Source: an uncultured Actinomycetes bacterium
GTDB taxonomy: Bacteria > Actinomycetota > Actinomycetes > S36-B12 > CAIYMF01
Direction of reading: 5' to 3'
NCBI GenBank assembly: GCA_963843975.1
Contig: CAWJMG010000001.1
Location: 1,385,532 to 1,417,531 of the forward strand
Length of the DNA stretch: 32,000 nucleotides
In this document: piece after piece, positions 16,193 through 31,967 of the stretch
Layout: the number at the start of each line of letters is the position of its first letter
How positions within the stretch are numbered: position 1 is the first letter of the stretch
The notes under the pieces: model-generated
What the model was told of the DNA's origin: nothing
Seen by the model: only the letters and a program-made list of their open reading frames with translations
Databases searched by the model: none
Translations under genes and position numbers: made by a program

Positions 16193-16198
16193 CCTCGA

Positions 16199-16245: not shown

Positions 16246-16268
16246 CGGGTCCGGCTAGGTTCGACGGC

Positions 16269-17490: not shown

Positions 17491-17538
17491 CCCACCAACG
17501 CCCTTGCGCTCAGGGCGCTGCGGCAGGACGTTAGAGGC

Positions 17539-18579: not shown

Positions 18580-18627
18580 TTGACGGGTCACCCGCCCGCC
18601 ACTAGCGTCCCGTTCGGACCCAAACGA
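18580..18627 (+). promoter_or_regulatory. putative P450-operon promoter plus operator box (copy 1 of the 18-bp palindrome)
   Basis: TTGACG (18580-18585), 17 nt, TAGCGT (18603-18608). Then CCGTTCGGACCCAAACGA (18610-18627), and a GAGGAG SD before ATG 18668. Confidence 0.55.
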
Positions 18628-18667
18628 TTTCCCGCGACCGTGCCGCCGGACCACCCGAGGAGCCCTC

Positions 18668-19930
18668 ATGCAGCCGACCCCCGTGCCCCTGGACCAGGTC
18701 GACCTCGCCGACCTCGACGTGTTCGAGAAGAACGAGGCGTGGGGCATGTTCGACACGCTCCGCCGCGAGGCCCCCGTGCACTGGAACCCCGAGCACGACG
18801 GCGGCTCCGGTTTCTGGTCGATCACCCGGTACGACGACATCGAGATGATCGACAAGGACCCCGAGACCTTCACCTCGATGAAGTTCACCAACCTCGAGGA
18901 GCCCCCGGCCGAGTTCCAGGAGCTGCGCCGCTCGATCCTCGAGACCGACGGTCCGCGGCACATGTCGCTGCGCAAGCTCCTCATGCGCGACTTCAACCCG
19001 GCCCAGCTGCGCCGCTACGAGGACTTCCTGCGCGGCCTCGCCGCCCTCACCGTCGAGACGGCGCTGCAGCATGAGGAGATGGACTTCGTCGACGCCATCG
19101 CCGCCGACTACCCGATCGCGGTGCTCGCCCGCCTCCTCGACACCCCCGAGGAGATGACGCCGCAGCTCATCTCGTGGGGCAACGAGATCGTCGGCTTCTC
19201 CGACCCCGAGTTCGCGCGCGTGCTCGTCAACAGCGAGGAGGCGGAGAAGTACCGCCACCTCCCGTTCAGCTCGCCGGTGTCGCAGGAGATCTTCGAGTAC
19301 GGCCGCAAGCTCGCCGCCGAGCGCAAGGGCGGCGACGGCGAGGACCTCGTCAGCAAGCTCGTGAACCGCATCCCCGAGGACGGCATCCCGCTGTCGAACG
19401 AGCACTTCGACAACTACTTCCTGCTGCTCGTCGTCGCGGGGAACGAGACCACGCGTCAGGCGATCAGCCACTCGATGAAAGCTCTGATCGACAACCCCGA
19501 CCAGATGCAGTGGCTGCTCGACAACCCGGACAAGTACCCGCAGGCGATCGAGGAGCTTCTGCGCTGGGCCTCGCCGGTCTACCACTTCCGTCGTACGGCG
19601 ACCAAGGACGTCGAGCTCCACGGGAAGACCATCAAGGAGGGCGACAAGGTCGTCATGTGGTTCGCCTCGGGCAACCGCGACGAGACCAAGTTCGATGACC
19701 CGTACCGCCTCGACCTCAGCCGCTTCCCCAACGACCACATGACCTTCGGCAAGGGCCCGCACACCTGCATGGGCTCGAACCTCGCCCGGTTCGAGATGCG
19801 GATCATCTTCGAGACGCTCCTGCCGCGCCTCGTCTCGATCTCGCAGACCGGTGACATCCGCCGGGTGCGCAGCAACTTCGTCAACGGCATCAAGGGTTTC
19901 CCGGTGCGCATCGAGTCGAAGCAGGGCTGA
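18668..19930 (+). CDS. cytochrome P450
   Basis: 420 aa. I-helix VVAGNETTR, K-helix EELLRW (ExxR), heme loop FGKGPHTCMGSNLA with the cysteine ligand. Confidence 0.93.
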   Translation: MQPTPVPLDQVDLADLDVFEKNEAWGMFDTLRREAPVHWNPEHDGGSGFWSITRYDDIEMIDKDPETFTSMKFTNLEEPPAEFQELRRSILETDGPRHMSLRKLLMRDFNPAQLRRYEDFLRGLAALTVETALQHEEMDFVDAIAADYPIAVLARLLDTPEEMTPQLISWGNEIVGFSDPEFARVLVNSEEAEKYRHLPFSSPVSQEIFEYGRKLAAERKGGDGEDLVSKLVNRIPEDGIPLSNEHFDNYFLLLVVAGNETTRQAISHSMKALIDNPDQMQWLLDNPDKYPQAIEELLRWASPVYHFRRTATKDVELHGKTIKEGDKVVMWFASGNRDETKFDDPYRLDLSRFPNDHMTFGKGPHTCMGSNLARFEMRIIFETLLPRLVSISQTGDIRRVRSNFVNGIKGFPVRIESKQG

Positions 19931-19932
19931 GG

Positions 19933-20905
19933 ATGAGCGGCACCAAGACGACGGTCCGCGAGCACGAGGCCGAGCTCGTCGTCGAGTCGGTCGAGCGGGT
20001 GGCCGAGGGCGTCGTCGCCCTCACGCTCGTCGACCCCGACGGCGGCACGCTCCCCGCGTGGACTCCCGGCGCCCACGTCGATCTCGAGCTCGGCGACCTC
20101 GTCCGCCAGTACTCCCTGTGCGGCGACCCCGCCGATGCGCGGTCGTACACCGTCGCCGTGCTGCGCGAGCCCGAGTCGCGCGGAGGATCGGCGTACGTGC
20201 ACGAGTCGCTCGCTGCGGGCAGCCGCGTGGTGGTGCGCGGACCGCGCAACCACTTCGCGCTCGTCTCAGCCGCGCGCTACCGCTTCATCGCCGGTGGCAT
20301 CGGAATCACGCCGATGCTCCCCATGATCGCCGAGGCGGAGGCCATGGGCGCCGACTGGCACCTGTGGTACCGCGGCCGCGCCCGCGCCGGCATGGCCTAC
20401 TGCGACCTCCTCACGCAGTACGGCGACCGCGTCACGCTGCTGCCGGGCGACGAGACCGGCCCGCTCGACCTGGCCGCCGTCCTCGCCGACCCGGGCGACG
20501 GCACCGTCGTCTACGCGTGCGGTCCCGAGCGGCTGCTCGTGGGCATCGAGGAGGTGTGCGCGGCCTCGTGGCCGGCGTCCGCCCTGCACCTCGAGCGCTT
20601 CGCGGCCAAGGAGATCGAGGCGCCGGCGGGCGGCGAGCGGAAGCTTCGAGCTCGAGCTCGCGGCCTCGGGCGTCACCCTCACCGTGCCGCCGGACAAGTC
20701 CATCTTCAACGTCGTGCTCGAGGCGGGCATCAGCGTGCTCGGCTCCTGCCACGAAGGCGTCTGCGGCACCTGCGAGCAGATCGTGCTCGACGGCGACGTC
20801 GACCACCGCGACTCGGTGCTGAGCGAGTCCGAGCGCGCGGCCAACGACGCGATGATGGTCTGCGTCTCGCGCTGCTTCTCCGACCGCCTCGTCCTGGACC
20901 TGTGA
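19933..20905 (+). pseudogene. phthalate-dioxygenase-reductase (PDR/VanB)-type flavin + [2Fe-2S] oxidoreductase, disrupted by a +1 frameshift near 20640
   Basis: The frame from ATG 19933 gives flavin and NAD motifs (RQYSLCG, GGIGITPM) up to ...EIEAPAGGER, then Arg-rich nonsense. The +1 frame reads FELELAASGVTLTVPPDKSIF...SCHEGVCGTCEQ...VCVSRC (plant-type CX4CX2C...C ferredoxin domain) to the stop at 20905. The start is 2 nt after the P450 stop. Confidence 0.78.
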
Positions 20906-20909
20906 GGGG

Positions 20910-21971
20910 ATGGCCATGAGCTCTCCGCGCCGCGCCTTCTCCGCCGCCTTCCCGTCCGACTGCTGGTACGCGCTCGCGCGCTCCGGCGACGTCGACCGGG
21001 AGCCGTTCGGCCTTCGGGCCCTGGGCCTCCCCGTCGTGCTCTTCCGCGCAGCCGACGGCAGGGCTGTCGCGCTCGAGGACCGCTGCGCGCATCGTGCCTA
21101 CCCGCTGTCCGCCGGCGTCGTGGTCGAGGAGGGCCTGCGCTGCGGGCTCTGCGGCTTCGTCTACGACACCGACGGCCAGTGCATCTCCGTGCCCACTCAG
21201 CCCCGCGTGCCGTTCGGCGCGAAGGTGGCGTCGTACCCCGTCCAGGAGCGCGACGGCCTGGTGTGGGTCTGGCTCGGCGAGCCCGGCCGGGCCCGCCTGG
21301 CCCGCGTGCCGGAGCTGGCGTGGCTCGACGACGAGGCATGGGCCGGCGTGGGCGGCTCTGCCGTCGTGGCTGCCGGCTACCTCCTGCTCCACGAGAACTT
21401 CGCGGACGTGACCCAGGTGCCGTTCGTCGCACCGGAGATCGCGCCCAGCGTGATCGCTGTCGCGCCGCCGCTCGACGTCGTCGTCACGGAGACCACCGTG
21501 ACGCTGCGCCGCGAGTTCCCGCCCGCGCCGCTGCCGGCCTGGCAGGCCGATCTCCTCGGTGCCGGCGACGCCGCGTTCGAGACGCTGCAGGAGGGCTACT
21601 TCCTCTCGCCGGCGGCATGGGTCGACCACTGGGACGTGACGGGCGCCGACGGCACGACGGCACGCCTGCGGTTCACGCACCTGGTGACCCCGCTCGACGA
21701 GGGACTCTCGCAGCTGCACTGGCAGGTGGACCGCGACTTCGCCGTGGGTGACGAGGGCGCGGACGACCTCATGCTCGAGATGTTCGGCGACTACTACGAC
21801 CGCGTCCTGGCTGCGATGGAGACCGCGCAGGAGGTGCTCGACGTCGACGGCCGAGGCCCCGAGGTCAACGTGGCGGCCGACGTCGCCGCGCTCAAGGTCC
21901 GCGAGATCGTCCTCGCCATGCTCGCCACCGAGTCCCCGGCAGTCGTCACGACCCGCCGAGCCCGCGTCTGA
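20910..21971 (+). CDS. VanA-type Rieske-domain oxygenase-like protein with degenerate metal ligands
   Basis: 353 aa (alternative start ATG 20916, which is better spaced from GAGGGG). The Rieske region reads CAHRAYPLSAGVVVEEGLRCGLCGF, where CxH...CxxH is expected. The catalytic motif reads ENFADVTQVPFVA, where ENxxDxxHxxxxH is expected. Confidence 0.8.
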   Translation: MAMSSPRRAFSAAFPSDCWYALARSGDVDREPFGLRALGLPVVLFRAADGRAVALEDRCAHRAYPLSAGVVVEEGLRCGLCGFVYDTDGQCISVPTQPRVPFGAKVASYPVQERDGLVWVWLGEPGRARLARVPELAWLDDEAWAGVGGSAVVAAGYLLLHENFADVTQVPFVAPEIAPSVIAVAPPLDVVVTETTVTLRREFPPAPLPAWQADLLGAGDAAFETLQEGYFLSPAAWVDHWDVTGADGTTARLRFTHLVTPLDEGLSQLHWQVDRDFAVGDEGADDLMLEMFGDYYDRVLAAMETAQEVLDVDGRGPEVNVAADVAALKVREIVLAMLATESPAVVTTRRARV

Positions 21972-22002
21972 TGCCCGAGAACGACTCGAACGAGGAGAAG
22001 CC

Positions 22003-22803
22003 GTGTCCGAGCTGAAGGGGTTCGCCCCGCCGTACACCGTGAGCGGGCGCAGCGCGCTGATCCCGAACCCGCCGTGGTTCTACAGCGGCGACCTGCTCAC
22101 GGTGGAGTACCGGACCGACGTCGAGAAGGTCCGGGCCCTGCTCCCGGCCGACGTCGAGCTCGCGCCGGAGGACCCGGGCGCGGTCGCGTTCATCTGGGCC
22201 GACTGGCAGTCGTGCTCGACCGGCGGCGAGGAGCTGCTCGACCCCGCGCGCTCGCAGTACAAGGAGGCGTTCGCCGTCGTCCGCTGCCAGTACGAGGGCG
22301 GCACCTACTCGCGCTGCGTCCTCATCTGGGTCACCACCGACTTCGCCATGGCGCGCGGCATCCATCAGGGCTACCCGAAGAAGCTGGCCTCGATCCACCA
22401 GACGCGCCCGATGCCGTACGGCAAGGGTGCGCCGCGTATCGAGGCCGGCGCGAAGTTCGGAGCGACGGTGGCCGCGTACGACCACCGGCTCGCCCAGGCG
22501 GTGATCACGCTGACCGGGCCGGCGGACTCCAACGGATTCGTCAACGCGCTCCCGATGCTGCACCACCGACAGGTGCGGCCGATCGAGCGCGGCGCGGAGG
22601 GCTGGGCCCTCGACGAGGTGCTCACCATGAGCGGCGTCGGCTTCGAGGCCGGTCAGCCGTGGAAGGCCGAGGCGACCCTCGACCTGTTCGACTCCCCGTG
22701 GGACGACGTCGCCTCGACGCTGCCGGTGCGCGAGATCATCAGCGGGTACTACGTGCAGGTCGGCACGAGCTGGGACGGCGGTACGACGCTCGCCCACCGC
22801 TAG
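22003..22803 (+). CDS. acetoacetate decarboxylase (ADC) family protein
   Basis: GTG 22003 with GAGGAG SD, within track ORF 21748..22803. The N-terminus FAPPYTVSGRSALIPNPPWFYSGDLLTVEYRTD is characteristic of the ADC family. 266 aa. Confidence 0.75.
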   Translation: MSELKGFAPPYTVSGRSALIPNPPWFYSGDLLTVEYRTDVEKVRALLPADVELAPEDPGAVAFIWADWQSCSTGGEELLDPARSQYKEAFAVVRCQYEGGTYSRCVLIWVTTDFAMARGIHQGYPKKLASIHQTRPMPYGKGAPRIEAGAKFGATVAAYDHRLAQAVITLTGPADSNGFVNALPMLHHRQVRPIERGAEGWALDEVLTMSGVGFEAGQPWKAEATLDLFDSPWDDVASTLPVREIISGYYVQVGTSWDGGTTLAHR

Positions 22804-22812
22804 GAGGCGCGG

Positions 22813-23313
22813 CTACCTCGGGCGGACGCCCTTGTTCGCCACGATCTCGACGGCGTGCGGTGCCAGGGGCTTCAGCAGCGCCGTGGCGATGGTGCCGAGC
22901 TGGGACATCTGCTCGGGCGTGAGCACGTCCACCAGCAGCCGCCTCACCTCGCGGACGTGCGCGGGGGCGGACTCGACCATCTTGGCGAGGCCGGCGTCGG
23001 TCAGCACGGCCTCCACCGCGCGCGGGTCGACGGCAACCGGACGCCGCACGATGTACCCCTGCGCCTCGAGCCGCGACACGGCGTGCGACAGGCGCGACGG
23101 CGAGCCCGAGGCGAACTGCGCGAGCACGCTCATGCGCAGCGCGCGGTCCGGTGCGTCGCACAGACCAGCCATCACCTGGTACTCGAACGAGTTGAGGCAG
23201 GCGTCGCGCTTGAGCTGCGCGTCGACGGCGGCAGGGAGCGCCTCGAGCAGCATCGACACGGCGATCCACGTGCTCAGCTCGTCCGGGCTCAGCCACGGAA
23301 CGTCATCGGACAT
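22813..23313 (-). CDS. MarR family transcriptional regulator
   Basis: 166 aa with a MarR wHTH (FEYQVMAGLCDAPDRALRMSVLAQFASGSPSRLSHAVSRLEAQGYIVR). ATG 23313 lies 6 nt downstream of a TACCCT -10-like box, so the mRNA is probably leaderless. Confidence 0.88.
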   Translation of the reverse strand: MSDDVPWLSPDELSTWIAVSMLLEALPAAVDAQLKRDACLNSFEYQVMAGLCDAPDRALRMSVLAQFASGSPSRLSHAVSRLEAQGYIVRRPVAVDPRAVEAVLTDAGLAKMVESAPAHVREVRRLLVDVLTPEQMSQLGTIATALLKPLAPHAVEIVANKGVRPR

Positions 23314-23337
23314 GGCGGGAGGGTAGCGGACAGCGGT

Positions 23338-23390
23338 ACTTGAATCTTCAACTCGGGCGGTCTACAGTTCGGCTAACTTGAAGGTTCAAC
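23338..23390. promoter_or_regulatory. two copies of ACTTGAA-N2-TTCAAC operator in the MarR/DoxX divergent region
   Basis: ACTTGAATCTTCAAC (23338-23352) and ACTTGAAGGTTCAAC (23376-23390). Each has a TTGAA/TTCAA inverted repeat. The region is AT-rich. Confidence 0.6.
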
Positions 23391-23403
23391 ACAAGGAGAG
23401 ACC

Positions 23404-23778
23404 ATGAACGTCGCACTCTGGATCGTCGCCGGGCTGGTGGCCGCGGCGTTCCTCGGCGCCGGACTGATGAAGATCACCGGCAAGCGCGAGCAGATGCTCG
23501 AGCGCATGGCCTGGGTCGCCGACTACTCCCCGTCGCAGGTGAAGCTCATCGGCGTCGTCGAGGTGCTGGGCGCCCTCGGCCTCATCCTGCCCGCCGTCAC
23601 CGGGATCGCCCCGATCCTCGTGCCGATCGCTGCGACCGGGCTCGTCATCACCTCGGTCCTCGCCGCGATCATGCACATCCGTCGCGGCGACGGCGTCGGC
23701 TCGGCCGTGCCGGTCCTCGTGCTCGGCCTCCTCGCTGCGTTCGTCGCCTGGGGCCGCTTCGGTCCGTACGCCTTCTAG
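23404..23778 (+). CDS. DoxX-like family membrane protein
   Basis: 124 aa with four hydrophobic helices and DoxX-like sequence (MNVALWIVAGLVAAAFLGAGLMKI...). AAGGAGAG SD upstream. Confidence 0.8.
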   Translation: MNVALWIVAGLVAAAFLGAGLMKITGKREQMLERMAWVADYSPSQVKLIGVVEVLGALGLILPAVTGIAPILVPIAATGLVITSVLAAIMHIRRGDGVGSAVPVLVLGLLAAFVAWGRFGPYAF

Positions 23779-23784
23779 TCCCTG

Positions 23785-23827
23785 CATGACGAGGGGTCCC
23801 GCCGGTTCGGCGGGGCCCCTCGTCATG
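23785..23827. terminator. bidirectional stem-loop terminator between doxX-like and GS-like genes
   Basis: CATGACGAGGGGTCCCGCCG-gtt-CGGCGGGGCCCCTCGTCATG: 20-bp stem with a single U-G position, between convergent stops at 23778 and 23839. Confidence 0.7.
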
Positions 23828-23838
23828 GGCGGATGGGT

Positions 23839-25182
23839 CTACAGGTGGTACGCGTACTCGCGGAACTCCCAGTCGGTGACGAAGCGCGAGAACCGCTCGA
23901 CCTCGTTGCGCTTGTAGGTCAGGAACGAGTTCACGAAGAACTCGCCGACCACCTGGGCCAGCGCGGTGTCGGCCTCGAGGGCGTCGAGCGCCTCGGGCAG
24001 CGACTGCGGCAGCATCGGGGCGCTCTCGGGGTCGTAGCCGTAGCCCTCGAGCGGTGCGGCGGGCTCGAGCTTGTCGCGGACGCCGAGGTAGATGGCGGCG
24101 CTCACCGCGGCCATGGCGAGGTACGGGTTGGCCGTGGCGTCGCCGAGGCGCACCTCCATACGGGCCGCCCCACCGCGCTCCGGCGGGATGCGGACCATCG
24201 CGCTGCGGTTGTCCAGGCCCCAGTCGATGAGCCAGGGCGCGAGGGTGTCCGGCCCGAACCGCTTGTAGGAGTTGATCGTCGGGTTGAGGATCGCGGCGAG
24301 TGCCGGCGCGTGGGCGAGGACGCCCGCGATGGCTGCGCGGCCGATCGCCGACAGCCCGTCCTGGCCCTCCGGGTCGCCGAACACGTTGGTGCCGTCGCTG
24401 TCCACGAGCGAGATGTGCAGGTGGAAGCCGCTGCCGCCCTCGTCGTTGAACGGCTTGGCCATGAACGTCGCGAGCATGCCCTCGTGGCGGGCGATCTCCT
24501 GGACGGCCGACTTCATGCGGAACGCGCGGTCGGCGGCGTCGAGCAGGTCGGAGTGGTTGAGGTTGATCTCGAACTGGCCGGGCGAGAACTCGTGGTTGGC
24601 AGCGGTCACCTGCAGCGAGGCGTCGCGCATGTAGCGCAGCATCGTCAGCAGCATGCCCTTCGGGTCGCCCTTGCGGCCGACGACGTACACGTTGCCGGGC
24701 TGGTCGGCGTACCGCCCCCACCCGGTGGTGCTCGCGGCGTCCTGCTCGAGGAGGTAGAACTCGAGCTCCGGACCGATCACCGCGCTGACGCCGAGCTCGC
24801 TCAGCTTGGCCGAGACGCGACGCGCGACCTCTCGCGGCGACTCCTCCGCCGCGGTGCCGCCGAGGACGGTCGTGTCGGCGAGGCACCAGGCGGCGCCCGG
24901 CTCCCACGGCAGCGTGGTGAGCGTGGTGAGGTCCGGCCGCGCGCTGATGTCGGGCAGGCCGCTCTCGATGCCGCCCTGCACCGGGACGACGTCGCCCATG
25001 GGGGAGGTGTGGTAGACCGCGCGGCAGAACGCGATGCCGTGCCCCATGACGCTCGCCAGCTCGTCGATGAGGACGTCGCGACCGCGGTCGACACCGATCA
25101 GGTCGGGGTACGAGACGCGGATGACGTCGATGCCCTTCGCGCGCAGGTCCTCGACCAGGGCGGACACGTCGACGTTGTCCAT
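23839..25182 (-). CDS. glutamine synthetase family protein (gamma-glutamyl-amine synthetase, PuuA/GlnA3-4-like)
   Basis: 447 aa. Contains the GS catalytic-domain motif GGSGFHLHISL and NHEFSPGQFEIN. AAGGAG SD upstream. Confidence 0.85.
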   Translation of the reverse strand: MDNVDVSALVEDLRAKGIDVIRVSYPDLIGVDRGRDVLIDELASVMGHGIAFCRAVYHTSPMGDVVPVQGGIESGLPDISARPDLTTLTTLPWEPGAAWCLADTTVLGGTAAEESPREVARRVSAKLSELGVSAVIGPELEFYLLEQDAASTTGWGRYADQPGNVYVVGRKGDPKGMLLTMLRYMRDASLQVTAANHEFSPGQFEINLNHSDLLDAADRAFRMKSAVQEIARHEGMLATFMAKPFNDEGGSGFHLHISLVDSDGTNVFGDPEGQDGLSAIGRAAIAGVLAHAPALAAILNPTINSYKRFGPDTLAPWLIDWGLDNRSAMVRIPPERGGAARMEVRLGDATANPYLAMAAVSAAIYLGVRDKLEPAAPLEGYGYDPESAPMLPQSLPEALDALEADTALAQVVGEFFVNSFLTYKRNEVERFSRFVTDWEFREYAYHL

Positions 25183-25219
25183 GCGGATCTCCTTGCCATG
25201 GGGTGCTGACCGGGTCTAG

Positions 25220-25237
25220 TCGTTCGGGTACGAACGA
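25220..25237. promoter_or_regulatory. operator box, copy 2 of the 18-bp palindrome
   Basis: TCGTTCGGGTACGAACGA has perfect 7-bp arms TCGTTCG/CGAACGA. It lies 38 nt upstream of the GS-like start codon. A further GAACGATAG (25243-25251) follows; that 9-mer also occurs at 27541-27549. Confidence 0.55.
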
Positions 25238-25323
25238 TGGGGGAACGATAGTGGCCGTGCCGCCACGGGGGAAGGGGTCGGCGCAAACTGCCCGAGCCCT
25301 TGCGGGGCTGCGGGTCGGGCCAT

Positions 25324-25341
25324 ATGTTCGGACCCGAACGA
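25324..25341. promoter_or_regulatory. operator box, copy 3 of the 18-bp palindrome
   Basis: ATGTTCGGACCCGAACGA (GTTCGG-AC-CCGAAC core), immediately upstream of the GAGGAG SD of the amidotransferase gene. Confidence 0.5.
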
Positions 25342-25353
25342 GAGGAGCCGCCG

Positions 25354-26067
25354 GTGCGCGCGCTGTTCGTCCAGCAGGACCACGTCTCGCCCGTCGGGCC
25401 GGTCGGTGCGCAGCTCGAGGCGCGCGGGTACGACGTCGAGGAGTTCCTCGTCGTCCCCGAGAGCCGGTTCCACGACCCCAATGTGGCAGCGGTGTTCCCC
25501 GACCCGCGCGACTTCGACGTGATCGTGCCCATGGGCGCCCCCTGGTCGGTGTACGACCACGCGACGATCGGCGCCTGGGTGCTCGAGGAGCTGACGTTCC
25601 TGCGCACGGCGCACGACGCCGGCGTACCCGTCCTCGGGATCTGCTTCGGCGGCCAGGCGCTCGCCGCGGCGCTCGGCGGAGCGGTCGAGCGCGCGCCCGA
25701 GGCCGAGGTCGGCTGGTACGAGATCGAGAGCGACGCACCGGGCCTCGTCGAGCCGGGGCCGTGGTTCCAGTGGCACCACGACCGGTGGGTCGCGCCGCCC
25801 GGTGCCGAGGTCATCGCCCGTACTCCCGTCGCGCAGCAGGCCTTCACGATCGGTCGCAGCATGGGCGTGCAGTTCCACCCCGAGCTCACCCCGGAGCAGC
25901 TGCAGGGGTGGCTCGACAACGGCGGCAGCACTTACCTCGAGGCGCACGGCGAGGACGCCGGGGCGCTGCTCGAGGTCACCGAGCGGACGGCGTCTGCCGC
26001 GCAGGCCCGCAGCCGGCTGCTGGTGGACCGGTTCCTCGACCAGGTGGCCTCGCGGCCGCAGGGGTGA
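25354..26067 (+). CDS. class I glutamine amidotransferase-like protein
   Basis: GTG 25354 after GAGGAG. Nucleophile elbow GICFGGQ and VQFHPE (His/Glu of the triad). 237 aa. The track ORF extension back to 25300 has A-ending codons and carries the operator and SD. Confidence 0.8.
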   Translation: MRALFVQQDHVSPVGPVGAQLEARGYDVEEFLVVPESRFHDPNVAAVFPDPRDFDVIVPMGAPWSVYDHATIGAWVLEELTFLRTAHDAGVPVLGICFGGQALAAALGGAVERAPEAEVGWYEIESDAPGLVEPGPWFQWHHDRWVAPPGAEVIARTPVAQQAFTIGRSMGVQFHPELTPEQLQGWLDNGGSTYLEAHGEDAGALLEVTERTASAAQARSRLLVDRFLDQVASRPQG

Positions 26068-26072
26068 TCCGA

Positions 26073-26102
26073 GCGTGCGGGCCCGAACGACTCTCGTAGA
26101 CT
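26073..26102 (+). promoter_or_regulatory. operator box copy 4 plus -10-like element in front of the MarR gene
   Basis: GCGTGCGGGCCCGAACGA (26073-26090), then TAGACT (26097-26102) 7 nt before GTG 26110, which fits a leaderless mRNA. Confidence 0.45.
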
Positions 26103-26109
26103 CGCGGAC

Positions 26110-26790
26110 GTGGCAGCCGTGACCCCGTCGGGCAAGACGCTTCCACGCGCTGCATCCGGCGCCCGCCGGCCGGTCGCCCACGTCGTCCACCCCGACGACT
26201 GCGACCCCAGCAGCTGCCCCTGCGACGACGCGGAGTGCTCGTTGAGCAAGTACGTGCGCGCCACCACCGCCGCCGCCGACCCGAGCCCCACGGGCGAGCA
26301 CACGCTCGAGGCCACCGAGCAGGCCGTCGCCGAGCGCCTCGCGGGCCTCGAGGTCGACATGGCCGCGATGGCCGCCGTCTCGAACATCTACCGCGCCGCC
26401 AACGCCGTACGGAACCACCTCGAGCGCACCGTGCTCGCGCCGCACGACCTCACCTGGACCGGCTGGGTCGTGCTCTGGGTGGTGTGGATCTGGGGCGACA
26501 TCGAGAGCCGCCACGTCGCCGCCGAGGCCGGCATCTCCAAGGGCACGCTGACCGGCGTCCAGAACACCCTGATCTCGCGCGGTCTCGTCAAGCGCCGGGT
26601 CCACCCCGACGACGCGCGCCGCGTGCTGCTCTCGCTCTCGCCCAAGGGTCAGAAGCTGATGGGCGAGCTCTTCCCGAAGTTCAACGCCGAGGAGGCGTTC
26701 GTCGCGAGCCAGCTCGACGACGCCGCCAAGCTCGCGATGGCCCGCAGTCTCCGCACCGTCGTCAAGCAGGCCGAGAACGGCACCGCCTGA
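26110..26790 (+). CDS. MarR family transcriptional regulator (possible HpaR-like) with Cys/His-rich N-terminal extension
   Basis: 226 aa. MarR wHTH (SRHVAAEAGISKGTLTGVQNTLISRGLVKRRVHPDDARRVLLSLSPKG). It is preceded by about 70 extra residues including HVVHPDDCDPSSCPCDDAEC, and third positions across that extension are G/C-rich. Confidence 0.82.
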   Translation: MAAVTPSGKTLPRAASGARRPVAHVVHPDDCDPSSCPCDDAECSLSKYVRATTAAADPSPTGEHTLEATEQAVAERLAGLEVDMAAMAAVSNIYRAANAVRNHLERTVLAPHDLTWTGWVVLWVVWIWGDIESRHVAAEAGISKGTLTGVQNTLISRGLVKRRVHPDDARRVLLSLSPKGQKLMGELFPKFNAEEAFVASQLDDAAKLAMARSLRTVVKQAENGTA

Positions 26791-26796
26791 CGCGGG

Positions 26797-27501
26797 TCAG
26801 CGGGCGGCGTCGACCAGGGCTCGGAAGAGCGCGAGCTGCGCGGGGTCGGTCTCGAAGGTGTCCTCGGGGTGCCACTGGACGGCGAGGAACCAGCCCTTCG
26901 CGTCGATGAGCGCTGCGGCCTCGACCGTGCCGTCGGCAGCATGCGCGATCGGTACGAGGCCGGCGCCGAGGCGGCTCACGCGCTGGTGGTGGTAGCAGGA
27001 CGCCGCCGTCGTGGCGCCGACGACGTCGGCGAGCAACGACCCGGCATCCACGGCCACCTCATGCACCACGTGCCGGTGGGGCTCGGCCATGTGCTGCTCG
27101 AGCTCGCCGCCGAGGGCGACGTTCACGACCTGCCAGCCGCGGCAGACCGCGAGCAGCGGCGTGCCGGATGCGATGGCCCAGCGTGCGACCGCGAGGTCGA
27201 AGGCGTCCTGCTCGGCGTCGACGTCGTAGACGTGCTCGCTGCGCTCGCTCTGCCCGTACGTCGCCGGATCGAGGTCGCCGCCGCCCGGGAGCAGCACGGC
27301 GTCCACGAATCCGAGGCGGGCTGCGACGTCCTCGACGCTCACGACGCCGCCGGGCGCCCACGGATGGATCGTGACCGGCTCGCCGCCGGCGCGCAGTACG
27401 CCCTCGGACAGCGCGCGGGCCGTGCTGATCGCGCGGTTGCGGTGGGCGGACGCCGATGCCGAGAACCGGGCGGGGATCGCGACGATCGGGGACCGCGACA
27501 T
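26797..27501 (-). CDS. gamma-glutamyl-gamma-aminobutyrate hydrolase family protein (peptidase C26, PuuD-like)
   Basis: Starts at ATG 27501 (MSRSPIVAIPARF) with GGAGG SD, within track ORF 26797..27708. Motifs LLPGGGD, AVCRGWQ (Cys nucleophile), VQWHPE. 234 aa. Confidence 0.82.
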   Translation of the reverse strand: MSRSPIVAIPARFSASASAHRNRAISTARALSEGVLRAGGEPVTIHPWAPGGVVSVEDVAARLGFVDAVLLPGGGDLDPATYGQSERSEHVYDVDAEQDAFDLAVARWAIASGTPLLAVCRGWQVVNVALGGELEQHMAEPHRHVVHEVAVDAGSLLADVVGATTAASCYHHQRVSRLGAGLVPIAHAADGTVEAAALIDAKGWFLAVQWHPEDTFETDPAQLALFRALVDAAR

Positions 27502-27504
27502 CTC

Positions 27505-27546
27505 TTGACGCCTCCGCAGCAGGGCCATACGTTTGTGTCCGAACGA
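27505..27546 (+). promoter_or_regulatory. putative hpaE-operon promoter overlapped by operator box copy 5
   Basis: TTGACG (27505-27510), 17 nt, TACGTT (27528-27533). ACGTTTGTGTCCGAACGA (27529-27546) overlaps the -10. It is followed by GAACGATAG and the palindrome CCGGATCCGG (27551-27560). Confidence 0.55.
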
Positions 27547-27598
27547 TAGCCGGATCCGGCTCGCTCGTGCCACCCCCATCCTCGCGGAGGCCCGCCCC

Positions 27599-29071
27599 AT
27601 GACCAACGCAGTCGTCGCCGGTGTCGAGGTCGACACCCGGCACTGGATCGGAGGCGAGCGCGTCGCGAGCGCGACGACGTTCGAGGACGTCTCGCCGCTC
27701 GACGGCACGGTGATCGCCGAGGTGAGCCGCGGGGGTCAGGCCGAGGTCGACGCCGCCGTCGCCGCCGCCAAGGCCGCGTTCCCTGCCTGGGCCGCGCTGC
27801 CGGTGGCCGAGCGCTCGGCCATCCTGGTCAAGGTCGCCGAGGGCATCGAGGCGCGCATCGAGGACCTCGCCCAGGTCGAGACGCGCGACAACGGCTCGCT
27901 GCTGCGCTCGCACCGCCGCGGCGTCATGCCGCGCGTGGCGATGAACATCCGCTTCTTCGCCGAGTACGCCGTGAACGAGCTCTCCCACCCCGACTTCGAC
28001 ACTCGCGGCCACCGCAACCACGTCTCGTGGGACCCGGCCGGCGTCACCGCGATCGTCACGCCGTGGAACGCACCGCTCATGCTCGCCACCTGGCGCATCG
28101 GCCCGGCGCTCGCGGCTGGCAACACCGTGGTCGCGAAGCCGCCGGAGTGGGCGCCGCTGACGGCGTCGCTGTTCGCCGACATCGCCCACGAGGCGGGGCT
28201 TCCCGCCGGCGTCTTCAACATCGTGCAGGGCCTCGGCACCGAGGCCGGCGCACCGCTCGTCGCGCACCCCGACGTACGCCGGGTCTGCTTCACCGGCTCG
28301 GTGCCGACGTCGATCAAGATCGGCGAGTCCGCGGCCCGCAACGTCACCCCCGTGAGCTTCGAGCTCGGCGGCAAGTCGCCGCTGCTGGTCTTCGACGACG
28401 CCGACCTCGACCTCGCGGTCGACCTCGCCGTCGAGCAGTTCGACAACTCCGGGCAGGTCTGCCTCGCTGCCGTGCGCATGCTCGTGCAGGACGGCATCTA
28501 CGACGAGTTCCGCGCGCGGTTCCTCGAGCGCGCAGCCCAGGTGAAGCAGGGCGACAGCCGCGACGAGTCGTCCGACATCGGGCCGCTCGTGAGCCGGACC
28601 CACTTCGACCGGGTCGACGGATTCGTGACGCGCGCGGTCGCGGACGGCGCCCGGGTGATCCTGGGTGGCGAGCCCAACCATGAGCTCAACGAAGCGACCG
28701 GCGGATTCTTCTACAAGCCCACGGTGTTCGAGGATGTCGACCGCACGATGGAGATCACCTGCCAGGAGGTCTTCGGACCCGTCCTGACCCTCCAGCGATT
28801 CGGCACCGAGGAGGACGGCGTCGCGATGGCGAACGACACCGACTTCGGCCTCGCGGCCACCCTCGTCACCGGAAGCCAGGAGCGCGCCGAGCGCGTCTCC
28901 TCGCAGCTGCGCGCCGGCACGGTCTGGATCAACTGCTTCTTCGTGCGCGATCTCTCCGCGCCCTTCGGCGGCTCCGGCCGCTCGGGCATCGGACGTGAGG
29001 GCGGCCTCTGGTCGTTCGACTTCTACTGCGATGTCAAGAACTCTGTGTTCGCCCCGAAGGGATGGAACTGA
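27599..29071 (+). CDS. hpaE: 5-carboxymethyl-2-hydroxymuconate semialdehyde dehydrogenase-like aldehyde dehydrogenase
   Basis: ATG 27599 after GCGGAGG, 490 aa. ALDH motifs FELGGKSP and catalytic Cys GQVCLA. The C-terminus VRDLSAPFGGSGRSGIGREGGLWSFDFYCDVKNSV closely resembles my recollection of E. coli HpaE (VRDLRQPFGGVKASGTGREGGEYSFEVFAEMKNV). Confidence 0.85.
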   Translation: MTNAVVAGVEVDTRHWIGGERVASATTFEDVSPLDGTVIAEVSRGGQAEVDAAVAAAKAAFPAWAALPVAERSAILVKVAEGIEARIEDLAQVETRDNGSLLRSHRRGVMPRVAMNIRFFAEYAVNELSHPDFDTRGHRNHVSWDPAGVTAIVTPWNAPLMLATWRIGPALAAGNTVVAKPPEWAPLTASLFADIAHEAGLPAGVFNIVQGLGTEAGAPLVAHPDVRRVCFTGSVPTSIKIGESAARNVTPVSFELGGKSPLLVFDDADLDLAVDLAVEQFDNSGQVCLAAVRMLVQDGIYDEFRARFLERAAQVKQGDSRDESSDIGPLVSRTHFDRVDGFVTRAVADGARVILGGEPNHELNEATGGFFYKPTVFEDVDRTMEITCQEVFGPVLTLQRFGTEEDGVAMANDTDFGLAATLVTGSQERAERVSSQLRAGTVWINCFFVRDLSAPFGGSGRSGIGREGGLWSFDFYCDVKNSVFAPKGWN

Positions 29072-29072
29072 C

Positions 29073-29966
29073 ATGGGTGAGGTTGTCGGAGCGGGGCTTC
29101 TGTCCCACGTGCCCACGATCATGGCTCCGCTCGAGGAGCGGCTCGCGCTCAACGGCGGCAAGGAGATCTCGCTCGTCCCCGCCCTGCACCAGCTGCGCGC
29201 GGAGAAGTTCGAGCAGCTCGACTACGACACCGTGATCGTGCTCGACTCGCACTGGTTCACGACGGTCGAGTTCATCGTGACCTCGCAGGACCTCCGCGCC
29301 GGCCTGTTCACGGCCGAGGAGCTCCCGCGCGGCATGTGCCGCATCCCGTACGAGTGGAAGGGCGACCGCGAGCTCGCCGAGGCGATCGCAGCCGAGGGTG
29401 AGCCGGCCGGCACCTGGATCACCGCGATCGACGACCCGTACCTGCCGCTGTACTACCCGTCGATCAACCTCTGGTCGTACCTCGGCAAGGGCATGGACAA
29501 GCAGTGGATCTCGATCTCGGTCTGCCAGACCGGTGACACCGACGACTTCCTGCGCGTGGGGCGCGCGATCCGTGCCGCGGTCGAGAAGACCGACCGCAAG
29601 GTGATCATCATCGCGACCGGCTCGATGTCGCACACGTTCTACAAGCTCAAGGAGCTGCGCAAGCACGAGAGCAGCGACCCGTCGCACATCATCACCCAGA
29701 AGGCGCGCGACATGGACCACGAGCGCCTCGAGTGGTTCTTCGAGGGCCGCCACGACCGGGTGCTCGACACCATGCCGGAGTTCCTCACGGTGCGGCCCGA
29801 GGGCATGTTCGCCCACTACCTGATGATGGCCGCGGCGCTCGGTGAGCACGACTTCAGCGCGCCCGGGGTCCAGTACGGCGACTACGAGAACGCCATCGGC
29901 ACGAGCCAGGTCCACGTGTGGTTCGACCGCCCCGAGGCCGGTTGGACCGCGCCCCGCACCGCCTGA
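29073..29966 (+). CDS. hpaD: LigB-family extradiol ring-cleavage dioxygenase, homoprotocatechuate 2,3-dioxygenase (HpaD)-like
   Basis: ATG 29073, 1 nt after the hpaE stop, 297 aa. Contains LSHVPTIM, DTVIVLDSHWF and GSMSHTF, which parallel E. coli HpaD (THVPSM, DTIIVFDTHW, GSLSHRF). Confidence 0.82.
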   Translation: MGEVVGAGLLSHVPTIMAPLEERLALNGGKEISLVPALHQLRAEKFEQLDYDTVIVLDSHWFTTVEFIVTSQDLRAGLFTAEELPRGMCRIPYEWKGDRELAEAIAAEGEPAGTWITAIDDPYLPLYYPSINLWSYLGKGMDKQWISISVCQTGDTDDFLRVGRAIRAAVEKTDRKVIIIATGSMSHTFYKLKELRKHESSDPSHIITQKARDMDHERLEWFFEGRHDRVLDTMPEFLTVRPEGMFAHYLMMAAALGEHDFSAPGVQYGDYENAIGTSQVHVWFDRPEAGWTAPRTA

Positions 29967-29980
29967 CCGACGTACCGACC

Positions 29981-30032
29981 CGCTCTGGATGACTGAAAGG
30001 CACGTTCCCATGCCCTTCACGCATCCAGAGCG
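29981..30032 (+). other. intercistronic inverted repeat (11-bp perfect arms) between hpaD-like and FAH genes
   Basis: CGCTCTGGATG (29981-29991) and CATCCAGAGCG (30022-30032) are separated by a 30-nt spacer. The core TCTGGATG/CATCCAGA is identical to the repeat at 16199-16245. Confidence 0.5.
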
Positions 30033-30053
30033 AGCAACCTTCTGGGAGAGAAC

Positions 30054-30929
30054 GTGACCGAGTACCGCCGGATCCTGCTCGAGGGCAGCGCCGTCCAGGT
30101 CGTCCGCCACGGCGACACCCTCGTGGCTGCGGACGGCCGCGAGGTCGGCGTCGAGGACGCGATCCACCTGCCGCCGAGCGAGCCCACGAAGATCATCGCG
30201 GTGCACCTCAACTACGACAGCCGCACGCAGGAGTTCATGACCAAGCTCCCGCCGGCGCCGACGTACTTCCACAAGCCGATCACGGCGATCAACAGCCACA
30301 AGGGCGCGGTCGTGCGCCCCGAGGGCTGCCGGTGGCTCAACTACGAGGGCGAGATCGTCATCGTCATCGGCCGCACGTGCCGCAACGTGTCGCCGGCCGA
30401 GGCGGGCGACTACATCGCCGGCTACACCGTGGGCAACGACTACGGGCTGCACGACTTCCGCGACACTGACGCCGGCTCGATGCTGCGCGTGAAGGGATCC
30501 GACACCCTCGCACCGGTCGGCCCGGGCCTGGTCACCGACTGGGACTTCCGCGGCAAGCAGATCCGCACTCTGGTCAACGGCGCCGTCGTCCAGGACGACA
30601 CGACCGACGGCATGGAGTGGGACATGAACTACCTCGTGGCCGACCTCGCGCGCACGATCACGCTCGTGCCCGGCGACCTCATCTACTCGGGCACGCCCGC
30701 CAACTCGCGGCCCGTCGTCCCCGGCGACGTCGTCGAGGTGGAGGTCGAGGGCCTCGGGAAGCTCACCAACTACATCGTCACCGGCCCGACACCGATCCGC
30801 ACCGACGTCGGCGCGCAGCCGACCGAGAGCGAGGAGGTCGTGTCCACGGCCCTCGGCGGCGACTGGGAGTTCCGCGGCATCCGCACGCCGTCCAAGGACC
30901 TCTACCCCAGCACCGTCCAGGAGAAGTAG
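30054..30929 (+). CDS. fumarylacetoacetate hydrolase (FAH) family protein, HpaG-like isomerase/decarboxylase
   Basis: GTG 30054 after GGGAGAG, 291 aa. FAH-fold motifs (KIIAVHLNY, NYEGEIVIVIGR, GYTVGNDYG, PGDLIYSGTP). Placement directly after hpaE/hpaD. Confidence 0.82.
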   Translation: MTEYRRILLEGSAVQVVRHGDTLVAADGREVGVEDAIHLPPSEPTKIIAVHLNYDSRTQEFMTKLPPAPTYFHKPITAINSHKGAVVRPEGCRWLNYEGEIVIVIGRTCRNVSPAEAGDYIAGYTVGNDYGLHDFRDTDAGSMLRVKGSDTLAPVGPGLVTDWDFRGKQIRTLVNGAVVQDDTTDGMEWDMNYLVADLARTITLVPGDLIYSGTPANSRPVVPGDVVEVEVEGLGKLTNYIVTGPTPIRTDVGAQPTESEEVVSTALGGDWEFRGIRTPSKDLYPSTVQEK

Positions 30930-30950
30930 CCGCACCGGTCGCAGGCCGCG

Positions 30951-31010
30951 AGCTACTGCCCAAAGTGGGGTGTTGGCGCAGCCCGAAGCCCCACTTTGGG
31001 CAGTAACTCG
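30951..31010. repeat. 60-nt palindromic intergenic element, copy B (perfect 17-bp stem)
   Basis: TACTGCCCAAAGTGGGG (30954-30970) pairs perfectly with CCCCACTTTGGGCAGTA (30989-31005) around an 18-nt loop. It starts 22 nt after the FAH stop. Homologous to 7574-7633. Confidence 0.75.
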
Positions 31011-31031
31011 AAGAATATGGAGGGTGGCGGG

Positions 31032-31967
31032 GTGGCGGACGTGCGGTGGCTCATGGTGCTCACCGAGAACGAGGCGATCCTGGATCCGCGTGACCTCGGT
31101 GCGCTCGTGGACCTCGCCGCGACCGCCGAGGCCAACGGGGTCGACGGCGTCCAGCTCTCCGAGCACGTCGCGCTCGGCCGCGACTCCGGTGCTGCAGGCG
31201 AGATGCACAACCCCCGCGACTACGCCGCCCCCGGCAACCAGTCGCCGGCGTACCCGTGGCCGAGCAGCATCGTGCTGATGTCGGCCATCGCCCAGGCGAC
31301 GTCGTCCCTGCGCCTCGTCGCCGGAGCGATCATCGCGCCGCTCCGGCACCCGCTGCTGCTCGCCAAGGAGCTCGGCACCCTCGATCTCCTGTCCCAGGGC
31401 CGGCTCGTGGTCCTGCCGACGGTGAGCTGGTCGAAGGACGAGTACGCCGCCCTCGGCGTCCCGTTCGCCGAGCGCGGCCGCATCCTCGACGAGCAGCTCG
31501 AGGTGCTCGCGAAGTCCTGGGGACCGTTCCCCATCAGCCACGCCGGCCCCCGGTTCCCCTTCACCGACGTCTGGCTCGAGCCGGGTGCGCACACGCAGGC
31601 CGGTCCGCCCTTCTGGTTCGGCGGCCAGGGGATGCCACCGCACGTCGTACGCCGGATCGCCCGCTACGGCAGCGGCCTCAACCCCTTCGGCCGTCTCACC
31701 GACGCCGACATGGCCGCGCTGGCCGCCGGCATGCGCGAGGCGGGCCGCGACCCCGGCGAGCTCGAGCTCGTGGGCGGGATCCAAGGCACGTTCACCGGCC
31801 CGGACGACGTCGCCGACGTCGACGTCGCCCTCGCCGACCTGCCCCGCCAGCTCGAGCAGGGCTTCACCACGATCTGCTTCAAGCCCTCGATGTTCGTGCG
31901 CTCCGTCGACGAGGTGCCCGCGCTCTGCCGCCACCTCGTCGCCGAGGGTCGCCGCCTCTCGTCGTAG
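31032..31967 (+). CDS. LLM class (luciferase-like) flavin/F420-dependent oxidoreductase
   Basis: Luciferase-like monooxygenase fold sequence (GVDGVQLSEHVALG, LRLVAGAIIAPLRHPLLLAKELGTLDLLSQGRLVV). The start is uncertain: GTG 31032 sits 7 nt after GGAGGG, and the alternatives are ATG 31017, GTG 31041 and ATG 31053. The track start at 30996 lies inside the repeat hairpin. Confidence 0.78.
   Translation: MADVRWLMVLTENEAILDPRDLGALVDLAATAEANGVDGVQLSEHVALGRDSGAAGEMHNPRDYAAPGNQSPAYPWPSSIVLMSAIAQATSSLRLVAGAIIAPLRHPLLLAKELGTLDLLSQGRLVVLPTVSWSKDEYAALGVPFAERGRILDEQLEVLAKSWGPFPISHAGPRFPFTDVWLEPGAHTQAGPPFWFGGQGMPPHVVRRIARYGSGLNPFGRLTDADMAALAAGMREAGRDPGELELVGGIQGTFTGPDDVADVDVALADLPRQLEQGFTTICFKPSMFVRSVDEVPALCRHLVAEGRRLSS

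Follow-up and report, generated by a model that had tools for sequence, protein, structure and literature searches.

We describe here a cluster of genes, in the DNA of an uncultured bacterium of the Actinomycetes, that appears to join two known kinds of pathway: the γ-glutamyl pathways that act on amines, and the meta-cleavage pathways that open aromatic rings. The stretch analysed, which we call ‘the window’, is 32 kb long (32,000 nucleotides), and the cluster occupies its distal part. The chances, as we judge them, are not far short of even that the cluster is a single catabolic regulon, under the control of a MarR protein, serving the breakdown of a primary aromatic amine (an arylethylamine like tyramine or dopamine). 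More tentatively, we propose that γ-glutamyl acts in it as a removable protecting group for the extradiol cleavage of catecholamines, that a protein of the acetoacetate decarboxylase (ADC) superfamily, an ‘aldolase-dehydratase’ by kinship, is its natural hydratase–aldolase, and that, with a tail of the Puu type, the whole would amount to a complete pathway, widespread and hitherto undescribed, by which tyramine or dopamine is converted to pyruvate, CO2 and γ-aminobutyrate (GABA). These proposals start from the gene content of the cluster, its conservation and co-occurrence, a shared operator, and the conserved catalytic residues of the ADC-like and LigB proteins; from these we infer the substrate, the individual reactions and the order of the steps. 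In the full-text literature (most subscription journals lie outside it), we found no description of this gene combination, nor of bacterial catabolism by way of γ-glutamyl-tyramine or γ-glutamyl-dopamine. A preliminary description of the window, made from the sequence alone, had likewise recognized no described pathway in the combination.

The window is the final 32 kb of contig C1 of a genome assembled in three contigs (4.19 Mb; 71.5% G+C; assembly completeness, 92.9%), from the genus to which Longivirga aurantiaca belongs. Gene calls were checked by Pfam, NCBIfam and third-position GC, and all of the gene families named in the preliminary description are present, on the strands that it gave. 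Five genes begin later than their longest open reading frames (ORFs): those for the amidotransferase (25324), the Peptidase_C26 protein (27501), the aldehyde dehydrogenase (27599), the LigB protein (29073) and the ADC-superfamily protein (22003). The features, by position in the window, are as follows:

16269-17534, plus strand: ferredoxin-reductase-type flavoprotein (Pyr_redox_2; Pfam), with a frameshift near 16843
18610-18627: operator copy 1, CCGTTCGGACCCAAACGA, 41 bp 5' of the P450 start
18668-19930, plus strand: cytochrome P450 of the CYP124/125/153-like clan (Pfam, 89.8 bits)
19933-20905, plus strand: PDR/FNR-type reductase with a C-terminal [2Fe-2S] domain (weak NCBIfam matches), in two frames, with an extra base near 20641
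20910-21971, plus strand: VanA-type Rieske protein (Pfam Rieske and VanA_C)
22003-22803, plus strand: ADC-superfamily protein of the MppR/Sbi00515 type (Pfam ADC, 170 bits)
22813-23313, minus strand: MarR1 (Pfam)
23404-23778, plus strand: DoxX (Pfam)
23839-25182, minus strand: glutamine synthetase (GS)-family ligase (Gln-synt_C, 348 bits)
25220-25237: operator copy 2, TCGTTCGGGTACGAACGA, a perfect palindrome, between the GS-like gene and that for the amidotransferase
25324-25341: operator copy 3, which overlaps the probable start codon (ATG) of the amidotransferase gene
25324-26067, plus strand: class-I glutamine-amidotransferase-like protein (Pfam GATase, 48.5 bits)
26073-26090: operator copy 4, 5' of the MarR2 gene
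26110-26790, plus strand: MarR2 (Pfam MarR; best model HpaR)
26797-27501, minus strand: Peptidase_C26 (C26) protein, PuuD-like (Pfam, 158.6 bits)
27529-27546: operator copy 5, between the C26 and aldehyde dehydrogenase genes, which are 97 bp apart
27599-29071, plus strand: HpaE-like aldehyde dehydrogenase (ALDH; Aldedh, 524 bits)
29073-29966, plus strand: single-subunit class III extradiol dioxygenase of the LigB family (Pfam LigB, 82.7 bits)
30054-30929, plus strand: FAH-family protein resembling the C-terminal half of HpaG (decarboxylase/isomerase type; Pfam, 176 bits)
about 31017-31967, plus strand: F420-type luciferase-like (LLM) oxidoreductase (Pfam, 121 bits)

The cluster runs past the end of the window, which is also the end of contig C1, onto contig C2, where there is a gene for an APC permease. 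We take the cluster to continue in this way because the permease gene adjoins the LLM gene (within 2 kb) in the closest relatives; contig C2 probably joins the end of C1.

That these genes belong together is indicated by their persistence in other genomes. Approximately 20 kb around the orthologue of the GS-like gene was fetched from 15 genomes of the genus and order; the series GS-like, amidotransferase, MarR2, C26, ALDH, LigB and FAH is kept in nearly all of these loci, and an ADC gene and at least one P450 gene are always near. When one genome of each species was scanned, with the GS-like protein as anchor, 80 loci were obtained, in Longivirga, metagenome-assembled genomes labelled Nanopelagicales, Nocardioides, Kineosporia, Blastococcus, Streptosporangiaceae, Actinomadura, Spirillospora, Embleya, Streptomyces, Microtetraspora and others; the cluster also occurs in small-genome freshwater actinobacteria (2.1–4 Mb). 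Across the 80 loci the GS-like gene (62–95% identity) is accompanied by genes for ADC/MppR-like, P450, HpaE-like ALDH, LigB, FAH and MarR proteins, shuffled in order and orientation, and de novo clustering of all ORFs in the related loci returns the same core. P450 orthologues (56–97% identity) adjoin the GS-like gene in most of the 80 and, in many relatives, the two genes are directly adjacent on one strand. The conserved gene order for which the preliminary description proposed to look in relatives exists, then, only in part: the gene set is kept, but beyond the genus and order its arrangement is not.

Co-occurrence points the same way. The LigB and GS-like proteins were searched for separately in 301 evenly drawn Actinomycetes genomes. 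LigB orthologues occur in 24 of these, and GS orthologues in 22; both occur in 21, LigB alone in three and GS alone in one. All four of the single-gene genomes are fragmented or incomplete assemblies, and in three of the four the gene is at or near a contig end. Where both genes are present they usually lie within 8 kb of each other (17 of the 21 genomes). The preliminary description had suggested that the P450, GS-like and ring-cleavage blocks were one unit; they are clearly co-localised in relatives and, as far as comparison of genomes can tell, they are one functional, jointly regulated set across many actinobacteria.

The joint regulation is apparent from an operator, found by reading the promoter gaps. 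This is an 18-bp palindrome, TCGTTCGG-nn-CCGAACGA, sites for which were counted at two mismatches or fewer. Five copies occur in the cluster (at 18610, 25220, 25324, 26073 and 27529), versus 0.39 expected, each of which either falls in a promoter gap or coincides with a start codon; in 100 shuffles, a count of five was never reached. The genome as a whole has 31 sites in its 4.19 Mb, five of them in the 9 kb of the cluster. Two further sites, 70 bp apart, lie 5' of the APC permease gene on contig C2, which is 15 kb long. The 80 related loci, 1.42 Mb in all, contain 155 sites, approximately 15 times the genomic background, and nearly all of these are in gaps flanking GS, ADC, P450, MarR, amidotransferase and C26/ALDH genes. 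The shared operator that the preliminary description perceived is thus real, and the co-regulation drawn from it is supported, the same promoter gaps being marked in relatives. (One operator-like site with a single mismatch, at C1:1112722, beside CopD-like and unknown genes, we took to be a chance occurrence.) The proposed repressor is MarR2, which is predicted to bind the palindrome; HpaR is its best model (51 bits; cut-off, 121), and it is present in 48 of the 77 sources of related loci. A second palindrome, CTTGAAnnTTCAA, is probably the operator of MarR1: it occurs twice between the divergent MarR1 and DoxX genes (23339-23390), with none expected, and is absent from the rest of the window. 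The MarR1/DoxX pair is limited to close relatives and is probably an interposed, separate unit; its own palindrome and its narrow occurrence set it apart from the shared unit, with which the preliminary description had grouped it. Contigs of one freshwater metatranscriptome run, 90–97% identical, cover parts of the P450, reductase, VanA-like, ADC, GS, LigB and FAH genes (18692-30907). Related populations may express the cluster in situ, but this is weak evidence, and DNA carry-over is possible. Among public sequencing runs, none contained above 35% of the words sampled.

We envisage the pathway as follows. The amine would be taken up by the APC permease encoded on the next contig; in some relatives, an amino acid would be taken up instead, and a tyrosine-decarboxylase-like enzyme would form the amine from it. 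The GS-like ligase would couple the amine to the γ-carboxyl of glutamate, driven by ATP, and the P450, with the adjacent reductases, would hydroxylate the γ-glutamyl amide to a catechol, much as IpuD acts on γ-glutamyl-isopropylamide. The LigB dioxygenase would then cleave the ring of the amide itself, the acyl group keeping the side-chain nitrogen from closing on the aldehyde to form a pyrroline. The HpaE-like ALDH would oxidize the semialdehyde; the HpaG-like FAH enzyme would isomerize and decarboxylate the product; and the ADC/MppR-like enzyme, acting as a hydratase–aldolase, would release pyruvate and γ-glutamyl-γ-aminobutyraldehyde. The last of these would be converted to GABA, and the glutamate recycled, by an ALDH (in many relatives this would be a distinct, PuuC-like enzyme) together with the PuuD-like C26 hydrolase. 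The second amidotransferase-like protein may hydrolyse surplus tagged amine.

Two considerations of chemistry commend this course. The homoprotocatechuate pathway ends in pyruvate, succinic semialdehyde and CO2. If carbon is traced through the same steps for a catechol with the side chain -CH2CH2NH-γ-Glu, the products would be pyruvate, CO2 and γ-glutamyl-γ-aminobutyraldehyde, which is the substrate of PuuC, and PuuD would then give GABA. The PuuC-like ALDH, the pSLUN1 layout and GabT, all described below, were found after this prediction had been made, and all fit it. The second consideration concerns the tag. In the biosynthesis of lincomycin and the pyrrolobenzodiazepines, the 2,3-seco product of L-DOPA cyclizes spontaneously. 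The 2,3-seco product of a free catecholamine would cyclize in like manner, to a pyrroline, and since N-acylation prevents this, the γ-glutamyl group would serve as protection.

Genes that accompany the cluster in relatives bear on both ends of the proposed route. APC permeases, of two types, occur in 36 of the 80 loci; they are generic amino-acid/amine carriers without a specific model match. A group II decarboxylase dependent on pyridoxal phosphate (PLP) occurs in 14 loci, often directly 3' of the FAH gene. Its best NCBIfam models are two tyrosine decarboxylases, below cut-off, and its PDB neighbours include the tyrosine decarboxylases of Enterococcus and Lactobacillus. A substrate of the phenylethylamine type, as the preliminary description supposed, fits with these permeases and decarboxylases. 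At the other end, a second ALDH is found beside the C26 hydrolase in relatives, with PuuC as its best model (500–568 bits; cut-off, 850). In five Actinomadura loci, a gene for GabT (above its cut-off) is found no more than approximately 10 kb from the GS-like gene; in two of the five it comes immediately after the P450 gene. Plasmid pSLUN1 of Streptomyces lunaelactis (51645-76976) carries together decarboxylase–FAH–LigB–ALDH, PuuC-like ALDH–PuuD-like hydrolase, ADC–MarR and GS–permease; a gene for a SpoIIE-family phosphatase lies there between the hydrolase and ADC genes, and a nonribosomal peptide synthetase (NRPS) gene approximately 12 kb away. Because the PuuC-like ALDH adjoins the PuuD-like hydrolase in relatives, the arrangement suggests that the γ-glutamyl amide is carried through ring cleavage. 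It speaks against the free homoprotocatechuate intermediate of the preliminary description, as does the composition of the cluster, which has no amine oxidase or transaminase to strip off the nitrogen before the ring is cleaved.

The enzymes of the tag recall two known systems. With the Puu pathway of Escherichia coli (PuuP, A, B, C and D), the cluster shares an APC-type permease, a GS-family ligase and a putative hydrolase of the Peptidase_C26 family, together with the PuuC-like ALDH of relatives, and the predicted last steps (γ-glutamyl-γ-aminobutyraldehyde to γ-glutamyl-GABA to GABA) are the same. It differs in having no PuuB-type oxidase (neither the cluster ORFs of the window nor the families that recur in the 80 loci include an amine-oxidase or DAO family), and in that the tagged amine is thought to be aromatic here, and the amino-aldehyde to arise by ring hydroxylation and meta-cleavage. 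Moreover, the Puu models fall far below their cut-offs: the PuuA-type model NF045547 scores 269 bits versus 650 for the GS-like protein, PuuD 61 versus 266 for the C26 protein, and PuuC 346 versus 850 for the ALDH. The GS-like gene is one of eight GS-family genes in the genome, and its product is below cut-off on all equivalog models. A PDB search with this protein gave approximately 185–207 bits alike to true glutamine synthetases, glutamate–methylamine ligase and type III ligases, and hence no clue to specificity. We rejected its identification as the ethanolamine ligase GlnA4, or as IpuC, given the eight GS-family genes, the 36.8% identity to IpuC, and the occurrence of orthologues only where the LigB/ADC set occurs. 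The role that we propose for it is that of a γ-glutamyl-amine synthetase. The C26 protein is predicted to be a PuuD-like γ-glutamyl hydrolase, and the class-I amidotransferase (NCBIfam PRK07053, 109 bits; cut-off, 250) is put forward as a γ-glutamyl amide hydrolase or safety valve.

The other system is Ipu, in which a permease, a GS-like ligase, a P450 that acts on the γ-glutamyl amide, and an amidotransferase-type hydrolase make up one pathway (PMC6776027). The architecture of Ipu in Pseudomonas sp. KIE171 and Paenarthrobacter aurescens TC1, with its multicomponent P450, is found again here. Identity to the proteins of P. aurescens TC1 plasmid pTC1 is only 32–37% (GS, 37%; P450, 32%; C26, 36%), the same as for any family member, and the resemblance is therefore one of analogy rather than orthology. 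The Ipu substrate, furthermore, is a small aliphatic amine, and Ipu has no dioxygenase, FAH or ADC-like genes.

Among the oxidative components, the P450 has as its closest solved structures, by PDB search, CYP125, CYP124, CYP268 and CYP153, and the number and type of P450s differ among lineages. The Pyr_redox_2 flavoprotein (16269-17534), homologues of which occur in some related loci, is possibly an accessory redox partner of the P450. The VanA-like protein was compared with the two sites of Rieske non-haem iron oxygenases of the VanA/DdmC type, the C-x-H...C-x-x-H cluster site and the D-x-x-H-x-x-x-x-H iron site, and has neither. One Rieske histidine has been lost, leaving a three-Cys, one-His motif, C-x-H...C-x-x-C (CAH...CGLC), and alignment to DdmC (3gb4) places Gln and Ala, in ENFADVTQVPFVA, at both of the mononuclear-iron His positions. 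The CxxC change is common to ten VanA-like orthologues, and the iron-ligand substitutions are also kept in orthologues; distant orthologues, from three loci, keep one or both of the iron histidines. The protein is probably not a catalytic oxygenase. O-demethylation by it, which the preliminary description entertained, is unlikely because the catalytic iron ligands are missing, and perhaps it is a former oxygenase turned electron carrier, for the P450 for example.

Several genes of the window are interrupted. The PDR-type reductase has a +1 frameshift near 20641, where relatives have a single intact frame, and the extra base is missing in contigs of two other public runs, one with an almost identical strain. 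The frameshift base of the flavoprotein, at 16843, is missing in one contig of an approximately 93%-identical relative from another run. In addition, the source-genome orthologue of GabT (contig C3:147869-149117) is read in four frames. Genuine gene decay we rejected, the bases being missing in contigs from other runs; the frameshifts at 20641 and 16843 and the broken GabT are probably indel errors of (long-read) assembly, of which this genome probably carries many.

Of the preliminary HpaD-, HpaE- and HpaG-like assignments, it holds that these are the best or only specific models; it does not hold that the proteins reach the equivalog cut-offs, which all three miss. HpaD_Fe is the sole NCBIfam model for the LigB protein (127 bits; cut-off, 316), which also matches the beta subunits of 2-aminophenol 1,6-dioxygenase, although its best match is to HpaD, not AmnB. 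In alignments with 3vsg_B and 8iq8, the His/His/His/Glu conserved in those proteins correspond to histidines of the LigB protein in SHVP, DSHW and SMSH and to its glutamate in PEG; by analogy with the CnbC/LigB structures, we presume these to comprise the iron ligands (2-His-1-Glu) and the catalytic His. The ALDH matches HpaE best (519 bits; cut-off, 638) and OH_muco_semi_DH (2-hydroxymuconic semialdehyde dehydrogenase) next (466 bits), and the best named model for the FAH protein is that of the HpaG C-terminal half (196 bits; cut-off, 276). With the hpa/hpc pathway (HpaD, E, F, G, H, I and R), the cluster thus has in common a LigB-type dioxygenase, a semialdehyde dehydrogenase, an FAH-type decarboxylase/isomerase and a MarR-type regulator. 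It departs from that pathway in having an ADC-superfamily protein in place of the hydratase and aldolase, and in its proposed substrate, an N-γ-glutamyl catecholamine rather than a free acid. HpaF, HpaH and HpaI were looked for among the window ORFs and among the families recurring in related loci, but not elsewhere in the genome, and none was found. The preliminary description was right that these late enzymes are absent from the window, but the ‘missing’ late steps are probably covered by the ADC/MppR-like protein as a hydratase–aldolase. A likeness of another sort is to the entry into plant betalains, where a compound derived from tyrosine is turned into a catechol by a P450 (the tyrosine hydroxylase CYP76AD) and ring opening falls to DOPA 4,5-dioxygenase (DODA), of the LigB family. 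There, the free amine closes on the aldehyde to give betalamic acid, whereas here the γ-glutamyl group would block closure and leave the chain degradable.

MppR and Sbi00515 condense pyruvate with aldehydes and then dehydrate the product to a 2-oxo-3-enoate. The reverse of this reaction is the step otherwise missing from the cluster, and it is on this account that we cast the ADC-like protein as a hydratase–aldolase. The three proteins share a fold family and a Schiff-base lysine. The ADC-like protein scores 145 and 133 bits to the solved proteins MppR and Sbi00515, and the lysine of its YPKK motif (tested as G-x-P-K) aligns with Schiff-base residues K156 of MppR (4jm3) and K122 of Sbi00515 (6eej), as numbered in the PDB chains. 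De novo ORF clustering recovered the gene in 55 of the 77 sources of related loci. MppR itself differs in being biosynthetic (for enduracididine); the ADC-like protein is below the MppR equivalog cut-off (TIGR04460, 163 bits; cut-off, 380), and no MppP or MppQ gene was found near its gene. For Sbi00515, we know of no physiological role. In S. (Saccharolobus) solfataricus, MppR-like ADC proteins are induced with catechol meta-cleavage genes, and have been suggested to act there as aldolases (PMC7820114).

A number of observations count against the protected-amine route. The nearest solved relatives of the P450 are aliphatic-terminus (omega) hydroxylases, not phenol-ring hydroxylases, so that ring hydroxylation by this enzyme is an assumption. 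Apart from this, pSLUN1 has no P450 at all, and the P450 step is therefore not universal. The specificity ascribed to the decarboxylase depends on weak best matches (111–138 bits), and GabT is near the cluster in just five of the 80 loci. The source genome itself has no orthologue of the PuuC-like ALDH (best identity, 45–47%) or of the cluster-type decarboxylase (best, 34%). The specific NCBIfam matches are all under their equivalog cut-offs, and no canonical Hpa or Puu enzyme is thus to be found among the cluster genes; nor was an HpaF-type isomerase found at the cluster. Finally, three proteins have no step in the route: the LLM oxidoreductase, the second amidotransferase and the degenerate VanA-like protein. 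The first of these, for which TIGR03619 passes its cut-off (168.2 versus 166.9 bits), is a frequent accessory, with homologues that recur in many related loci.

Other explanations of the cluster have to be set beside ours. One, close to the preliminary description, is that the tag works as it does in Ipu: the amine would be glutamylated only for the P450 step, the glutamate removed at once, the free amine deaminated by an enzyme encoded elsewhere, and a free acid, such as homoprotocatechuate, degraded by the LigB, ALDH, FAH and ADC proteins. Ipu is a precedent that works so; the cluster has two hydrolase-type genes; the C26 protein is 36% identical to the amidotransferase beside the Ipu P450 in P. 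aurescens TC1; and HpaD, HpaE, HpaG and HpaR are the best models for LigB, ALDH, FAH and MarR2. However, these Hpa models are all under cut-off, the 80 loci have no recurrent amine oxidase, transaminase or dehydrogenase to perform the deamination, and the pair of PuuC-like ALDH and PuuD-like hydrolase by the ring-cleavage operon places a γ-glutamyl aldehyde late in the route. We regard this version as unlikely, but deserving of attention. The protected-amine logic might, alternatively, be correct and the substrate different: an α-amino acid (tyrosine or DOPA, tagged on the α-amine), a benzylamine-type compound, or octopamine, tryptamine or histamine. The generic nature of the permeases, the restriction of decarboxylases to 14 loci, and the variation of the P450s in number and type by lineage would all allow for this. 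Where the decarboxylase is present, though, it is inside the operon, implying that an amine rather than an amino acid is tagged, and a C4 amino-aldehyde, the product to be expected from a side chain of two carbons, would suit the PuuC/PuuD-like pair and GabT; a substrate of these other kinds is unlikely.

An arylamine route, like those of Tdn, Atd and Npa, would have an aniline-type compound glutamylated and oxygenated, and the resulting aminophenol or catechol cleaved by LigB. A GS-like ligase paired with an amidotransferase-like hydrolase typifies the aniline and 1-naphthylamine pathways (TdnQ/AtdA1/NpaA1 and TdnT/AtdA2; PMC11335346, PMC4539516), in which, as proposed here, an aromatic amine is glutamylated before oxygenation; the match of LigB to 2-aminophenol 1,6-dioxygenase beta subunits is in keeping with this. 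In those pathways, however, the nitrogen is attached to the ring itself, and its removal falls to a two-subunit Rieske dioxygenase. The cluster has no such dioxygenase, only a single VanA-type protein without catalytic iron ligands, and the nitrogen is apparently kept to the end of the route. It has neither an AmnA-type alpha subunit nor a 2-aminomuconate deaminase, the best match of LigB is not AmnB, and the APC permeases, tyrosine-decarboxylase-like gene and PuuC/PuuD-like pair are ill-suited to an aniline; we find this reading improbable. Very improbable, in our estimation, is a biosynthetic cluster for a γ-glutamylated or ring-opened secondary metabolite (betalamic-acid-like or alkylproline-like). 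As is generally known, a P450 tyrosine hydroxylase and a LigB-family DOPA dioxygenase are the logic of betalains, and an F420-type LLM reductase acts in alkylproline biosynthesis, and the pSLUN1 copy is near the NRPS gene mentioned. But the ALDH, FAH decarboxylase and aldolase-type genes would dismantle any such product, and genes for tailoring, export or core biosynthesis are lacking from the loci; control by a MarR repressor, with operators at every promoter, and the presence of the cluster in freshwater actinobacteria of 2.1–4 Mb, are also contrary to it. That the blocks are mere neighbours (a GlnA4/Puu-type aliphatic amine module, an hpa-type module and a P450 operon, side by side) is hardly credible. 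Each does resemble a known, independent system, and the genome has seven other GS-family genes, but GS and LigB orthologues co-occur almost perfectly in the 301 genomes, mostly within 8 kb, the gene set is kept despite its shuffled order, and a single operator serves all of the blocks.

The surroundings of the cluster may be described briefly. To its 5' side (13783-18543) are a TetR regulator gene, genes for MDMPI_N/DinB-type proteins (14492-15229 and 15326-16192) and one for a serine beta-lactamase-like hydrolase (17539-18543); in other taxa, the TetR, MDMPI_N/DinB and beta-lactamase-like genes do not recur with the cluster, save for one MDMPI match in one locus. Between the FAH stop and the LLM start, at 30954-31005, is a perfect inverted repeat of approximately 17 bp (ACTGCCCAAAGTGGGG...CCCCACTTTGGGCAGT), likely a hairpin or terminator, which generates a false TTG start at 30996. 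A repeat search of the cluster region found only GC-rich chance repeats. On contig C2 (1-8205), the permease gene is followed by a DabB/DabA-type inorganic-carbon transporter pair and a gene for a methyl-accepting chemotaxis protein.

The gene set is present in approximately 7% of evenly sampled Actinomycetes genomes, and so is no curiosity of a single strain. Cultured carriers exist (Longivirga aurantiaca, Actinomadura spp. and Streptomyces lunaelactis, with pSLUN1), the candidate substrates are cheap, and the conserved MarR operator offers a read-out of induction. If the protected-amine pathway is real, soil and freshwater actinobacteria would possess a route for tyramine, dopamine and phenylethylamine unlike the textbook one, which passes by way of amine oxidase to phenylacetate. 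The γ-glutamyl tag would gain a chemical rationale, as protection of the amine during ring cleavage, and a physiological role would be supplied both for the MppR/Sbi00515 branch of the acetoacetate decarboxylase superfamily and for one among the many orphan GS-like paralogues in actinobacteria.

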